The position numbers and the translations under genes were made by a program. This document shows, one piece after another, positions 6,840 to 28,812 of a DNA stretch of 64,000 bases. Where the stretch lies: NCBI RefSeq assembly GCF_003334335.1, contig NZ_QOWQ01000025.1. The stretch is one strand, 5' to 3'. The DNA comes from Escherichia coli (GTDB lineage Bacteria; Pseudomonadota; Gammaproteobacteria; Enterobacterales; Enterobacteriaceae). A model generated the notes under the pieces. It did not search any database. It had not been told where the DNA came from and saw only the letters and a program-made list of their open reading frames with translations. The stretch's first letter is position 1. Each line of letters starts with the position of its first letter.

Positions 6840-8030
6840 TTAATTGCTGTTAACCGAAGTGACCAGATTTGCCAGGTATTTATCGGTAATACGCTGGCGC
6901 AGGGTCAGGTTTTCAAGAGGAGGCACCGGGGTATAGTCGTAGTCGATATACAGTTTTCCGGCCTTGAGGGTTTCCGCATCGTTGGATTCTTCGCTGAACC
7001 AGCAGGTCGCATCCACGATATAGCCGTTTGTTTTCAGCTCACGGAATTTGGCATTGATGCCGTCAACGATGTCGCGAATCAGCGTTGCGGTGATGGGCTT
7101 GTCCACCGCCCACATGTGCGCCTCAGCCATCGTGTCGGCCAGCACCTGCGCGGTGCGGGTGTAGTTTTCAAAGAGGAACAGCGGGTCATCCGAGCAGGTA
7201 CGGTTACCCCAGAAGCGGAAACCGTCACGGCGAATCAGCGTTGTGACACCTGACTCATTAAGCAGGTCAGCATCGGTGCCGGACTCCTGCAAATCCCAGA
7301 ATACAGAGGCACTGATGCCGGTAACACCGTTTACCCCGACATTGGACAGCGTTTTATGCCATCCCTGCTCCTGGTCGATTCTGGCACGCAACCCCAGCGC
7401 ACGGGCGGTGGCATACGCGGTGGCGGTGGTACTGGTGACCGTATCCCATGCGAGGAAATCCGGCCAGATGACCATCAGCTCACGCTGGCTGAAATTCTGG
7501 CGGTAGGCTTTCACCTCGGAAATGGTCTTACAGCCCCATGCGCTGATATATCCGAAAGCACGCAGCTTCTGACAGACGGATGCCAGTGCAACAGCCACCT
7601 CTTTGGTATCCAGTCCCGGCACACCGAGAATACGCGGTTTAACACCGGTTACCGACTCCGCCGCCAGCAGGGCTTTCAGTCCGGTGTACTGACCGTTTTC
7701 GTCGGTGGTGCCGATGATATTGGAAACGGTCTGCGCGAGTTTCGTTTCCTCGTCGTCGCCGGTGCCGTCTTCCACACGCACGACAACGGTGACCGGTTTT
7801 GACTGGTCGGCGATGGCCTGCAACGATGCCGCCAGCGTGCCTTTTTTACCGGCCTTTGCAATTGCGCTCTGTACATTGGTTATCAGCACCGGTTTATTGA
7901 GGGGGAAGGTTTCCGCATCCGCATCGCTGGCCGTGCAGACCATGCCGACAATGGCCGTGGATACGGTGGAAATGACGCGGGTGCCGTCGTTAATCTCCAG
8001 CACCTGCACGCCGTGATGATAGTCACTCAT
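6840..8030 (-). CDS. FI: Contractile tail sheath protein FI
   Basis: 396-aa ORF, P2 gpFI length and position. Confidence 0.9.
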   Translation of the reverse strand: MSDYHHGVQVLEINDGTRVISTVSTAIVGMVCTASDADAETFPLNKPVLITNVQSAIAKAGKKGTLAASLQAIADQSKPVTVVVRVEDGTGDDEETKLAQTVSNIIGTTDENGQYTGLKALLAAESVTGVKPRILGVPGLDTKEVAVALASVCQKLRAFGYISAWGCKTISEVKAYRQNFSQRELMVIWPDFLAWDTVTSTTATAYATARALGLRARIDQEQGWHKTLSNVGVNGVTGISASVFWDLQESGTDADLLNESGVTTLIRRDGFRFWGNRTCSDDPLFLFENYTRTAQVLADTMAEAHMWAVDKPITATLIRDIVDGINAKFRELKTNGYIVDATCWFSEESNDAETLKAGKLYIDYDYTPVPPLENLTLRQRITDKYLANLVTSVNSN

Positions 8031-8130
8031 CCGTTTAACTCCGTGGTTAATGGGTGCAACTATTTTCTGTTGTGCAGAGTATGAGGCGCTATTTGACCTG
8101 GCTGGTCAGTGGATGAAACAACAGATAAAG

Positions 8131-8165
8131 AAAAGGCGGGCAATTCGCCCGCCTGTCCTGATTTG
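8131..8165 (-). terminator. Putative rho-independent terminator between the cargo locus and FI
   Basis: Minus-strand hairpin GGCGGGC-GAATT-GCCCGCC followed by TTTTCTTTAT. Confidence 0.45.
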
Positions 8166-8430
8166 TACTCACTCATTTTCCGCCTGACAATTTACATAGC
8201 CCAAATGCTATCAAATCTGACAGCCTGCTTTGAGCGAGTAACTAAATTTGATTTAAATAAATTATAAGGATTCAAATGTTATTGGCACAAATTCCTGAGA
8301 TGCAAACAGTCACACTAAGTGTTCAAACAAGGTTCTGGACTACGGCTAACTCATCAGTTAAGTTTGTTTCCGACCTGTCGTTTCTTCCCTGTCAGGAGTC
8401 ACTTTTCGTGTTATTTTTTAAGGATGTTTT

Positions 8431-9210
8431 ATGAGTAATGAAACACAATCATTCCTTAGTCAATTGCTAATATCCATAATCTCTATATCTTTAGGGTCAT
8501 TTCTTTTTGCTGGAATCCTAGAGAGCTACAAAAAAGACCAAGATCTTCAGGAGGAGTTTATAAAGGATTACTTTAGGCCAATGATGAAATTACAAAGTTC
8601 TTGTTCATCTTCACATAATGAACTATTTCTAAAGTATGGAGAGTTATCTGCTTCTTATCAGCTCATGTATAATGAAATAGTACATATGGCAATGAGCCCT
8701 GATTCAGAATTAGGACAACATTATGAAGTTCTCCCGATATCTCTTATTAAAACAAATGAAGAGTTAAAAAAAAGAGTTGAAGATCTTGAAATGACGGTAA
8801 AAAAATGCAATGTCGATTTATTCCTTAAGTACGAAGAGCTTGCATTAGTTACTGGTTCATATCCAGAGTTTAAGAGGCTGGCGAAAAAACACACTGACAC
8901 AATTAACTCCATCTATTCAGAAAGACAAAAAAAAGCAAAGGGAAATGCAAAAAATATAGACCCTGATCAACTAATTCCATTGATGCGGAAATATATTGCC
9001 ATGGATCCACACACCAATGTAAACAAATCCATGCTTGCCAGTGAAATTGATAACATATCTAAACTAACAACACAGCATAATTTGATAATGGCAGAATATG
9101 AGGAGTTAATTTTCAAAGAAGATAATGATTTATTTATAACTCTTCATGATCTTTATGCAATCAAAATTAGTGAAAAGTATTCAGGTGGATTTATCAGTTG
9201 GATATTTTAA
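8431..9210 (+). CDS. Cargo protein at the Z/fun position: N-terminal TM anchor plus coiled-coil domain, function unknown
   Basis: 259-aa ORF, SD AAGGA 7 nt upstream of ATG, about 33% GC versus about 55% in flanking tail genes, opposite strand to flanking phage genes; hydrophobic segment LLISIISISLGSFLFAGIL. Confidence 0.7.
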   Translation: MSNETQSFLSQLLISIISISLGSFLFAGILESYKKDQDLQEEFIKDYFRPMMKLQSSCSSSHNELFLKYGELSASYQLMYNEIVHMAMSPDSELGQHYEVLPISLIKTNEELKKRVEDLEMTVKKCNVDLFLKYEELALVTGSYPEFKRLAKKHTDTINSIYSERQKKAKGNAKNIDPDQLIPLMRKYIAMDPHTNVNKSMLASEIDNISKLTTQHNLIMAEYEELIFKEDNDLFITLHDLYAIKISEKYSGGFISWIF

Positions 9211-9361
9211 AACATGATAACTCATCAGATACAATGCTAACTATGTAGAACGCGTAAATCTGTGAAGGTTACCAATGTGTTAGGTAATGTCCGCTCCTTG
9301 CACAGAGCGGACTGTCAGATTAGGCTTTACTCTGTGCTATAGATATGTCAGCTCATACAAC

Positions 9362-9889
9362 TTATTGCGGCATTTCCGGCCATTCAGGATTTGCAGGATC
9401 CACACGGCTGACCAGAACACTGTAGCGTTCCCATGCTTCCAGTCGGCTACGCTCCTCATCTGTTGCCATGTTCAGCCTGACAGCGCGCTCCAGTGGCTGA
9501 ATAACGCTTTCCGCTTCGGAAAGTAACGCGGCCTTTTGTGATTCTGCCTGTTGTTGCTGTTCGTCTGCCGTATAAATCCGCTTAATCACGGCACCATCCT
9601 TAAACATCCATTTACCTGAGTCATCAGCACGTCGGTTGGCGGTAATATCAGGAACCTCGACAACGTTAAAACCTTCAGGGTTAAGCGTTGAAGCATCTCT
9701 GGTGATGCCGACAATTATATTATTCTCGTCGTAAACAATCTTTATCGTGTCTTCCTGAAAATTACTTACTTCCTCATACCAGTTTTTTCCCTCTTCGGAC
9801 CATAACCAGATAACATCAAAATTTTTTGTCAGTTGATATTGGGCAACAGTTTTTGGATTACCCGCAGTAATATTTTTTAAATGCTGCAT
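9362..9889 (-). CDS. G: Tail fiber assembly protein G
   Basis: 175-aa ORF directly downstream of tail fiber H. Confidence 0.8.
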
Positions 9890-26141: not shown

Positions 26142-27143
26142 TCACCGAGCCATCTTGACTGCATAATGAACACAAAAATAATGTTCTCCCGCATATCTAA
26201 AATGATGTTCAATTTTTCTCAAACCTATATATGGAGTCTCCACTTCTTTAATCCCAACTATCTCATGAGATTCTACACCAATATCTACCGGAGTAATCTC
26301 TTTTAGATAATCAATGTATCTCTCACACCAAGCATCAAATTTTGCACCAGTATAATAAGCAATTAAAAACAAGCGTTTAACATTAATAGGATTATAGTTA
26401 CCAATTAGCTTTGAATAATGCTTTAATATGTTAGCTTGATCTAGAGATTTTAAAATCAATGCTTCTATTATAGCAAATAGATTTCCTTTATCTTCAATAA
26501 CAAGATCTAATTCACCCGCACTTTTACCAGATTGAGACTCTCCCTCTCTAGTTTGATCTTTTACCTCATAATTCTTAGCTAATAACATATCCCGTATAAA
26601 ATCATTAAAATCATCTTCACCATATCCTTTAGCAGAGCGACGCCCCAATCTTTGAAGCACCCAAGATAAATCACTATCAAACTTTATAAAATTCAAAGGA
26701 CGCTGCACTCGACCATCCTTTGATATTAAGCTTATACTATTAAGATTTAACAAATTAATCCTTTGCCTGATTAATTCATCAATATATCCAGAGTAACTAT
26801 TATTATCTAACACTACGATATGCTTATCAAAAGTAGTGGCTGCATTAGCAACTGCACAAACAACTATATCCTTAATATCCTCAGAACTATTCGGCACTGG
26901 TGTACGCAATATCTTGCCTGAAGGAGCTTTAGATAACTCAGACTCCCACTTCTTAAAAAACAAAAAAGAATCCTTGTTGTTTCCGCAAGACTTTAAATAA
27001 CCTAAGCGAATTTTTCCATCAGCATCAAGAATCAACTCATTTTCACCATTAACAATGGTTTCAATAAAAAAACCGCTAAAAACTTTAACATCAGAAATAT
27101 TAGCAGCAACAAATTCAGGACACAAACAAACAGCACAAAGCAT
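26142..27143 (-). CDS. Unknown-function partner protein of the ATPase (candidate defence effector)
   Basis: 333-aa ORF, start 1 nt after the ATPase stop, AT-rich; no motif I can assign with confidence. Confidence 0.6.
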   Translation of the reverse strand: MLCAVCLCPEFVAANISDVKVFSGFFIETIVNGENELILDADGKIRLGYLKSCGNNKDSFLFFKKWESELSKAPSGKILRTPVPNSSEDIKDIVVCAVANAATTFDKHIVVLDNNSYSGYIDELIRQRINLLNLNSISLISKDGRVQRPLNFIKFDSDLSWVLQRLGRRSAKGYGEDDFNDFIRDMLLAKNYEVKDQTREGESQSGKSAGELDLVIEDKGNLFAIIEALILKSLDQANILKHYSKLIGNYNPINVKRLFLIAYYTGAKFDAWCERYIDYLKEITPVDIGVESHEIVGIKEVETPYIGLRKIEHHFRYAGEHYFCVHYAVKMAR

Positions 27144-27144
27144 A

Positions 27145-28812
27145 TCAATGAACTCCCTTTGAGTTCATTATTTTTTGTATTTTTAATTCCTGTATTCTAA
27201 TTGTATCCTGAATCTCAACATCCATAAACTCATTTGGCCATGTGATATCTCCATCAGAATTCACAGCCACTCTATTTAGTAAGGTTGATGTTCCCTCTTC
27301 ATCTCGCTCAAGATGATAGATTGCCACATGGTCCTCAGTAAGTTCGCTTGATTCATCAACAATTCTTAATCTAATCCGTCTAACTAATGCATCACTATGT
27401 GTTTCAATAATAAAAATTTTCTTTTCTTGCATAGATATTTTAATTAATGCGTCAGTTAACCATGCCTGCATTTTAGGATGCAAATGTATTTCTGGTTGTT
27501 CTATTATTGTAATCGAGCCCTTTGGTGACAAATAAGCTTGAACCAAGACAGGCAACACTTGTGATATTCCAAACCCTACATCTGTCAATTCTAAATTAAC
27601 AGCATCTTGGTTTATAACTATCTTATGAATTATGTCATTAACTCTAACTATATCAACCGCTAAGTTAAATTCAGCGAGAAGAAGGTTTATGTTTTCTGTT
27701 ATTTTTGTATTTTTCTTCAGAATCTCCGCCAACTCAGAGCCATCAGCAGAATTTAACTGAGCATGATTGACTGTTTTATCTAATAAATAATAACGCTGAG
27801 GAAATGCCCTCAACGGGCTGACATGATTAACATTTTCGCCATCAAACATTTTTGAAAGCATTAATACTCCCAGAGAAACAACATGTGACAAAAAGTTAAC
27901 AACAGGGTTGTAGGAATTTCCAAAAAAAACATAAAAACCACGTCCTTCATTGACAGGGAATAGCCCCAAAGAATAAGGATTCATGATTTCTAAGATATCA
28001 GACTTACATCCTCTAAATACTTCTTGAGGGATAACATCCGACAATACAACGACATTATTCTTTTTGGGTAACAGTTCAACTATTCTTTCATCATTCTTAT
28101 TTAGAAGAACAAATCTCGAAACCTTTACCACACCTTTATTTTTATCATATCTGAAGTCATAACTTATTTTAGATGCAGACAATTTATTTCCTGAAATAGA
28201 AACAACTTTAGTTAGGCAATCTTTGATTCTCTTCAATGGGCATTCATATATAAATCTGCGTAAGTTTTCTGAGGTCGCCCGGCTAAACATAATATTATTA
28301 CCAGCATCTCTAAAAAGCATAATCAACTGGCACAATTTATCAGCAATAATATTTAATTTAGCCTCCTCAAACTCATCAAAATTAACAATAGCATTCAAAG
28401 ATTCATTTATCAAATTATTGGCCTTCGCGACCAACTCATCATTATTTTTTACTGTCTGTATAGTGAATCGCATAATCATAGCAAATGATTCTAAAGTTTC
28501 TCTTCTCAGAGTATCAATGCCATTTTTAACTACACTATTATCAGAAAAATCAAAGCTAAAGTTAAGTGTTTTGGAGTCATCTTTATTTTTTATAATATTT
28601 AATGCTTCCCCCATTCCCACTTTAGGTCCATTCAGCCGTAGAGCAGAGTCAGACAATGACATTGAATCAACTGTCTGAGAAAACATCAACAAAGAGTTAA
28701 TTAGTGCACTTTTTCCACAACTATTTGCACCTAACAATATTGTCAATGGCTTTAAATCTAACTTAAAGCTTTCGTATGCTTTATAATTTTGTCCTGTAAA
28801 AGTTCTCAGCAT
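27145..28812 (-). CDS. ABC-type (AAA_21/AAA_15-like) ATPase, candidate defence-system ATPase
   Basis: Walker A GANSCGKS, Walker B with HP motif ITIIEQPEIHLHP, H-loop IIETHS; 555 aa; AT-rich. Confidence 0.75.
   Translation of the reverse strand: MLRTFTGQNYKAYESFKLDLKPLTILLGANSCGKSALINSLLMFSQTVDSMSLSDSALRLNGPKVGMGEALNIIKNKDDSKTLNFSFDFSDNSVVKNGIDTLRRETLESFAMIMRFTIQTVKNNDELVAKANNLINESLNAIVNFDEFEEAKLNIIADKLCQLIMLFRDAGNNIMFSRATSENLRRFIYECPLKRIKDCLTKVVSISGNKLSASKISYDFRYDKNKGVVKVSRFVLLNKNDERIVELLPKKNNVVVLSDVIPQEVFRGCKSDILEIMNPYSLGLFPVNEGRGFYVFFGNSYNPVVNFLSHVVSLGVLMLSKMFDGENVNHVSPLRAFPQRYYLLDKTVNHAQLNSADGSELAEILKKNTKITENINLLLAEFNLAVDIVRVNDIIHKIVINQDAVNLELTDVGFGISQVLPVLVQAYLSPKGSITIIEQPEIHLHPKMQAWLTDALIKISMQEKKIFIIETHSDALVRRIRLRIVDESSELTEDHVAIYHLERDEEGTSTLLNRVAVNSDGDITWPNEFMDVEIQDTIRIQELKIQKIMNSKGVH

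Follow-up and report, generated by a model that had tools for sequence, protein, structure and literature searches.

A rare Z/fun cassette of a P2-like prophage in Escherichia coli encodes a membrane-anchored, predicted helical-bundle protein that is a possible envelope-level anti-phage factor

The DNA analysed here, called the window below, is a stretch of 64,000 nucleotides from contig NZ_QOWQ01000025.1 of Escherichia coli (RefSeq assembly GCF_003334335.1) that carries a P2-like prophage. The tail fibre assembly gene G and the tail sheath gene FI are separated by a single long open reading frame (ORF), which lies at the Z/fun position of P2 and encodes a protein of 259 amino acids. The neighbouring genes were named according to the record of Yersinia phage L-413C and a RefSeq E. 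coli record (Table 1). The Z/fun position is the second defence-enriched locus of P2 and holds fun and three validated systems (Vassallo et al., 2022; PMC9519451). An initial annotation, made from the letters of the window, had placed the ORF in this slot, on the strand opposite to the tail genes and behind a Shine-Dalgarno (SD) sequence of its own, and had called the ORF AT-rich and the slot a known variable locus for phage exclusion. The names and strand of the flanking genes, the ATG and SD, the cited defence enrichment and the comparison of slot contents given below all agree with it. Its proposal of a single-protein superinfection-exclusion or abortive-infection factor is supported in part. 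Among the functions considered, that of a stand-alone envelope-level defence or lysogenic-conversion factor was the best supported.

The G+C fraction was 0.31–0.37 over positions 8150–9350 (about 32% in the ORF itself) vs 0.55–0.59 in the tail genes. At the local base composition, stops make up about 7.6% of codons and the calculated p for 259 codons without a stop is about 1e-9, so the ORF is not a product of chance. Pairwise ratios of nonsynonymous to synonymous substitution (dN/dS) of 0.08–0.33 among homologues, which indicate purifying selection, lead to the same conclusion. The SD and the GTTATnTTTTAAGG context preceding it were unvarying across six homologous loci. The AT-rich upstream region of about 390 bp reported by the initial annotation proved to be composite: positions 8239–8430 belong to the variable cassette, while positions 8031–8238 are conserved P2 backbone, with a terminator-like minus-strand hairpin at 8134–8154. 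Within the cassette part, a non-coding block about 50–110 nt 5′ of the ORF was conserved although the surrounding sequence differs, and it may be a promoter or operator. A structured 5′ leader was considered for this block and rejected (minimum free energy z-score +0.71; RNAalifold −6.5 kcal/mol with two compensatory pairs among four sequences); the block had no match in Rfam and no stable RNA fold. A two-gene cassette was rejected as well. The second gene would have been a 52-aa ORF on the plus strand (8276–8434), with an SD and overlapping the main start (ATGA), but this ORF is not conserved: its ATG is ATA in L-413C, an in-frame stop is present in Enterobacter and the frame is broken in Pectobacterium.

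The cargo of the slot is a 1.05-kb cassette of which the 259-aa ORF is the sole conserved gene. Phage L-413C has the cassette at 98.6% identity, and its ORF, L-413Cp20 (NP_839869.1), is annotated as ‘hypothetical protein’; WP_065275707.1 is another equivalent. Among 50,697 phage records, L-413C was the only one encoding the protein, and the cassette was found in two of the 68 phage records that have the same flanks. It was present in 13 of 5426 complete E. coli genomes, vs 1961 places in 1691 genomes of the same survey at which the FI-side P2-type junction was found. The cassette is a rare cargo, in roughly 1% of P2-type slots. In six P2-size contigs from IMG/VR, which are colinear with the window, the cassette occupies this slot too; the backbones of these contigs are 94–99% identical to the window (thus differing by 1–6%) and some carry a different fibre gene. 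The IMG/VR scan with the single protein returned only near-identical P2 copies.

Table 1. Features of the Z/fun region and of related chromosomal loci (positions are those of the window unless a locus is named)
Feature	Position	Strand	Remark
259-aa ORF	8431–9210 (stop included)	+	ATG start; sole long ORF of the region
FI (tail sheath)	6840–8030	−	Named per L-413C and RefSeq E. coli records
G (tail fibre assembly)	9362–9889	−	Named per L-413C and RefSeq E. coli records
H (tail fibre)	9893–12187	−	Adjoins G; named per L-413C and RefSeq E. coli records
Shine-Dalgarno AAGGA	8420–8424	+	6 bases 5′ of the ATG; within the invariant GTTATnTTTTAAGG block
Upstream non-coding block	8322–8380	+	Kept in the E. 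coli, Enterobacter, P. carotovorum and P. parmentieri copies
Single transmembrane helix LLISIISISLGSFLFAGIL	8464–8520 (codons 12–30)	+	Mean Kyte-Doolittle hydrophobicity 2.36
Cys58 codon (helix 1)	8602–8604	+	Evolves paired with Cys126
Cys126 codon (helix 2)	8806–8808	+	Evolves paired with Cys58
Variable cargo of the Z/fun slot	8239–9285		Homology to P2, Wphi and P2-EC67 ends at 8238 and returns at 9286–9290
Left boundary	8214–8238		Left inverted-repeat arm; ends in core TGAGCGAG (8231–8238)
Right boundary hairpin GTCCGCTCCTTGCACAGAGCGGAC (GTCCGCT-N10-AGCGGAC)	9289–9312		Single occurrence in the window
Boundary sites in chromosomal loci	L012 5789–5804, 6859–6882; L015 5791, 6862		Sequence comparison

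The boundaries of the cassette were compared with those of related loci. At the left boundary, all five aligned sequences agreed in the initial seven bases of the core (TGAGCGA), and four of them had the full 8-mer TGAGCGAG, among these the non-P2 loci of Enterobacter and Pectobacterium carotovorum; P2-EC67 carries TGAGCGAA. The right hairpin overlaps the right inverted-repeat arm (9297–9321) and also ends the Enterobacter chromosomal copy on its right side. Both arms, 8214–8238 and 9297–9321, match the ‘left/right inverted repeat’ features of the P2-EC67 Z-region record. Nilsson et al. are said to have first described these Z-region inserts, in 2004. Positions 8227–9312 were present in an Enterobacter chromosome at 87.7% nucleotide identity and positions 8215–9233 in P. 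carotovorum at 77.6%, where the cassette lies between 17-bp direct repeats containing the core TGAGCGAG. This pattern of junctions suggests a site-specific exchange of the cassette between P2 prophages and chromosomes. A comparable arrangement is known from integrons: a homologue with 30% identity (Q2FA10) is the promoterless, single-gene cassette 2 of the chromosomal integron of Vibrio sp. DAT722 (PMC1382264). Like integron cassettes, the window gene moves as a unit between short palindromic or repeated sites; unlike them, the prophage gene is adjoined by no integrase, and its boundary sites are candidates and not established attC sites.

The other cargo of the slot (P2 fun(Z), Wphi gp44 and P2-EC67 ORF1) shares the junctions 8238/9286 and the inverted-repeat sites with the window gene and is likewise AT-rich, single-gene and non-core, but the window gene is on the opposite strand. 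Comparison by hhalign with the P2/Wphi-type 299-aa proteins (including a Fun(Z) test, 0.3%) and the P2-EC67 303-aa protein gave a probability of 0.3% or less. PADLOC-DB 2.0 had no family for the window protein at E up to 1, nor for a distant member (P0118) at E up to 0.01. No PADLOC model was found for the 299-aa and 303-aa proteins either, so the missing match is not evidence against a defence role. Judged by sequence, the protein is unrelated both to the Z-slot cargo compared and to all catalogued defence proteins.

The place of the gene among tail genes could speak for a phage structural or lysis component, i.e. a tail or fibre accessory or an i-spanin-like protein. The i-spanins, in which an N-terminal membrane helix precedes a helical, cysteine-containing periplasmic domain, are of a similar topology class. 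Such a function is barely conceivable here. More than 98% of the P2-type prophages that share the junction lack the gene, as do all phage records but that of L-413C. Copies of it also occur in chromosomes, integron cassettes and plasmids, away from any phage genes. No lipoprotein (o-spanin) partner ORF was found, the gene is outside the lysis module and the predicted bundle is closed and monomeric. Homology to a tail or fibre component, which in the initial annotation would have counted against an exclusion function, was looked for and none was found. The structural reading is effectively refuted, since the rarity of the gene, its strand, its AT-rich composition and its non-phage contexts all exclude it.

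Two further features of the prophage were recorded. Gene H contains a 132-bp tandem repeat (11186–11629, minus strand; 3.4 copies, 89% matching) that encodes a 44-aa fibre-shaft repeat, and related P2 contigs vary in the repeat-bearing part of H. At the old/tin hotspot (26142–28812, minus strand), a gene for a 555-aa ABC/AAA ATPase is accompanied by a 333-aa partner gene with no match. The ATPase matches PADLOC NsnB (2e-51), HEC-03B, PDC-M55A and AriA, and its NCBIfam hits are far below cut-off; the pair is probably a two-gene defence system.

The 259-aa protein has one hydrophobic segment, residues 12–30, which is conserved in all 46 aligned members of its family. No second segment was found, the best other 19-residue window having a hydrophobicity of 0.5. 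The remainder of the protein is 28% charged (isoelectric point 5.6). The helix is followed by an invariant E31 and a near-invariant K34. Structure was predicted with AlphaFold2 from the 46-sequence alignment (pLDDT 90.2, pTM 0.79), with helices at residues 8–88, 100–141, 144–172, 178–190, 196–250 and 254–258. The model predicts that the soluble part folds as an intramolecular, antiparallel up-down four-helix bundle and not as a classical coiled coil. The membrane helix is continuous with the first helix of the bundle, whose length, calculated from its helices, is about 85 Å. The modelled distal tip consists of the loops 89–99 and 191–195, and the aromatic C-tail returns to the membrane end. 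No catalytic signature was recognised in the all-helical soluble domain. The initial annotation had proposed one N-terminal hydrophobic helix and a highly charged soluble domain with no catalytic motif, probably a coiled coil; all of this held except for the coiled coil, which is replaced by the predicted bundle. The helical sensors with a 4HB_MCP domain (the ligand-binding domain of Tsr/Tar, QseE) likewise have an up-down four-helix bundle continuous with their first transmembrane (TM) helix, but they have a second TM helix and a cytoplasmic signalling domain, whereas the window protein ends at residue 259 with neither. The Pfam 4HB_MCP model matched none of the 46 members. A hemerythrin-like domain was rejected: the conserved His/Glu/Asp di-iron ligands are absent and the cut-off of TIGR02481 was not reached.

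Conservation was highest in the TM helix, which no other segment of the family surpasses, in the juxtamembrane motif (G28, invariant E31, K34), in the turn at 134–144 and in the C-tail, and was lowest in the distal tip. Cys58 and Cys126 were both present in 43 of the 46 members and both missing from the other three; neither occurred singly. No other cysteine aligned to the soluble part in 45 members; the exception, P0095, is without the pair but has a single cysteine close to the tip. A four-ligand metal site formed by Cys58, His62, Cys126 and Glu224 was rejected, position 62 being Gln in 11 of the 46 members. As H62 and E224 remain conserved in the three members that have lost both cysteines, a disulfide is the likelier explanation, and Cys58 and Cys126 probably form one that braces the bundle.

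The topology was examined from the charges flanking the helix. The net charge was higher on the N-terminal than on the C-terminal flank in 40 of the 46 members and the reverse was seen in none. The long N-terminal extensions of some homologues are rich in K and R (e.g. 13 of 39 and 12 of 46 residues). From these charges, together with the co-varying cysteines, we infer that the N-terminus is likely to be cytoplasmic and the bundle periplasmic; the diderm envelope of all named hosts was also counted toward this orientation.

Homologues were searched for with a word-indexed method, which gave 45 clusters, and exhaustively with HMMER, which gave 68 representatives at 50% identity. All full-length members are 250–300 aa long and free of domain fusions, with identities as low as about 22%. 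The gene holds a G+C content of 31–35% in every host. Named hosts are Enterobacterales, Vibrio, Teredinibacter, Marinomonas, Alcanivorax, Burkholderia, Paraburkholderia, Ralstonia, Duganella and one Flavobacteriaceae metagenome-assembled genome. The window protein had no match in Pfam or NCBIfam. In PHROGs it falls in an unnamed family, phrog_7729, whose profile of 181 positions covers residues 79–259 only; the starts of the phage entries from which it was built were probably called at an internal Met, which would cut off the membrane helix. The only name found in databases is ‘lysogenic conversion protein’, assigned by position. The gene entered GenBank with the record of L-413C and is still listed with no function.

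Outside P2, about 12 distinct contexts were found, with no recurring partner gene, and about half of them are defence-rich. The Enterobacter copy adjoins an Mrr-like nuclease (Mrr_cat). A Vibrio islet has a resolvase, VspR, a ResIII helicase and a weakly AbiD-like neighbour. A copy on a plasmid-like contig has SMC_N/AAA_23, a Schlafen-like AlbA_2 protein and methylases nearby. On a metagenomic contig (L025, 6434–10813), a distant member starts, from its second ATG, 37 nt after NucC of a complete type III cyclic oligonucleotide-based antiphage signalling system (CBASS), which comprises TRIP13, two HORMA proteins, a cyclase (CD-NTase) and NucC, with a DrmB-like protein and a helicase upstream. 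A defence role would fit these contexts.

The CBASS locus also bears on a second explanation, in which the protein is a membrane effector of abortive infection. Its bundle, facing either side of the membrane, would sense a phage cue and free the TM helices to self-assemble, the inner membrane would be depolarised or permeabilised and the infected cell would die before phage release. Membrane effectors are common among abortive systems (PMC9122126), and the gene lies in defence islands beside such systems, the type III CBASS being one. The strong conservation of the TM helix and of G28, E31 and K34 would be odd for a passive anchor and would fit an assembly within the membrane, and a plain count of K and R (given below) would permit a cytoplasmic bundle. 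However, NucC is already the effector of the CBASS locus, which makes the gene a neighbour and not a component; the single hydrophobic segment leaves no hidden hydrophobic hairpin (other windows reach at most 0.5), and PADLOC gave no match to any effector, membrane ones included. The paired cysteines and the net-charge bias favour the periplasm, where there are few phage cues beyond the entry apparatus. An abortive effector is considered rather unlikely, though it is the main rival of an entry block.

Both Pectobacterium copies lie near type VI secretion system (T6SS) or Rhs loci. The P. carotovorum copy is between an array of Rhs and orphan immunity genes (PAAR-Rhs-Imm26-DUF4303 upstream) and a nuclease-like protein, whose N-terminal domain matches the PDC-M68A, CBASS endonuclease and Shedu models. 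The P. parmentieri copy is in an integrase islet alongside Hcp-VgrG-Rhs. These two loci could indicate an orphan immunity protein against a toxin acting in the periplasm or membrane, such as a colicin or an effector of T6SS/Rhs or contact-dependent inhibition. Some immunity proteins, that against colicin M among them, are known to combine an inner-membrane anchor with a periplasmic domain braced by a disulfide. Nevertheless, the gene is directly downstream of a toxin gene in none of the approximately 12 contexts, and the T6SS/Rhs association is confined to one genus. In P. carotovorum, about 4 kb separates the copy from the Rhs gene; since it has direct repeats of its own on both sides, it is taken as an independent insertion. 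An immunity function is very improbable on these grounds.

The remaining contexts are of other kinds. One copy is between LysR genes on a Burkholderiales chromosome, an Alcanivorax copy is in the mutS-recA gap and a Burkholderia copy is on a conjugative plasmid. In Teredinibacter (L002, 4043–16079), the homologue is surrounded by small genes on the same strand (ABM, methyltransferase, acetyltransferases, DUF4304, HEPN), an arrangement like that of a chromosomal integron array. Next to the homologue, both there and on a short metagenomic Vibrio contig (L019), is an IS110 transposase. No defence gene is near in the Burkholderiales LysR locus, the Alcanivorax mutS-recA gap, the integron-like metabolic arrays or the plasmid accessory region. 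These loci would suit a lysogenic-conversion gene unrelated to phages, i.e. generic cargo for stress tolerance, a surface property or a host-interaction trait. The positional database name points the same way, and P2 hotspots are known to hold non-defence cargo such as cytolethal distending toxin (PMC9122126). Set against this are the defence-rich half of the contexts and the validated defence cargo of the Z slot, and no domain indicates a specific non-defence activity. A conversion trait unrelated to phages is thus judged unlikely.

The reading placed first, as a tentative possibility, is that the gene is a stand-alone, envelope-level anti-phage factor that blocks the entry of phage genomes; the abortive effector is placed second, conversion unrelated to phages third, immunity fourth and a structural or lysis function last. 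According to this first reading, the small AT-rich mobile cassette carried by the P2 Z/fun hotspot, with the ORF as its sole conserved gene, would supply a protein expressed by the prophage in the lysogen. The product would be a bitopic inner-membrane protein whose signal-anchor helix (residues 12–30) runs into the first helix of the bundle, with the bundle braced by the Cys58/Cys126 disulfide and the aromatic C-tail GGFISWIF back at the membrane surface. It would work alone at the envelope and most likely stop superinfecting phages from bringing in their genomes, at a step in the periplasm or the inner membrane, i.e. superinfection exclusion in the broad sense. The conserved TM and membrane-proximal part would engage either itself or a conserved component of the inner membrane, and the hypervariable membrane-distal tip would set the specificity. 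As only 11 residues would be cytoplasmic, no catalytic signature was recognised and the bundle is probably periplasmic, the protein would act by blocking something at the membrane or by disturbing the membrane. The fuller proposal, that a disulfide-braced periplasmic bundle which blocks entry is shuttled between the P2 slot and enterobacterial chromosomes by integron-like exchange at hairpin sites (TGAGCGAG and GTCCGCT...AGCGGAC), is doubtful as a whole.

Membrane-anchored superinfection-exclusion proteins of phages offer a comparison (see PMC10461980, PMC11436027). T4 Sp and Imm, lactococcal Sie2009, HK97 gp15 and P22 SieA are, like the window protein, small, prophage-borne single proteins anchored in the cytoplasmic membrane. 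This likeness probably extends to a domain outside the cytoplasm. Unlike these proteins, the family studied here is widespread outside phages.

Several points weigh against an entry-blocking function. Most of the classical exclusion proteins are carried by phages and have a narrow range, whereas this family has many members in chromosomes, integron arrays and plasmids. Searches of the PDB and of the BFVD viral library gave no match, by sequence or by fold, to an exclusion protein described before. The plain K+R count, 1.7 on the N-terminal side vs 2.8 on the C-terminal side, indicates the opposite topology. No sigma-70 consensus promoter was found on the plus strand upstream of the ORF. The neighbourhoods amount to guilt by association in a small sample of about a dozen loci. 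No paper citing the protein accessions was found in the literature searched, and no phenotype is on record for any member.

The gene is carried by L-413C, which is a plague-diagnostic phage, and by prophages of several human E. coli isolates, with possible effects on phage typing and phage therapy. The exchange of cargo at P2 hotspots is still unexplained according to a 2026 preprint (10.64898/2026.02.27.708500); the junction sites common to P2 prophages and to Enterobacter and Pectobacterium chromosomes offer a handle on this swapping. The high-confidence structural model provides clear mutational targets, namely E31, K34, the C58/C126 pair and the variable tip. If the protein does exclude phages, it would represent a new single-gene family of envelope-level defence that current catalogues have missed, and one of the few defences acting at or before genome entry.

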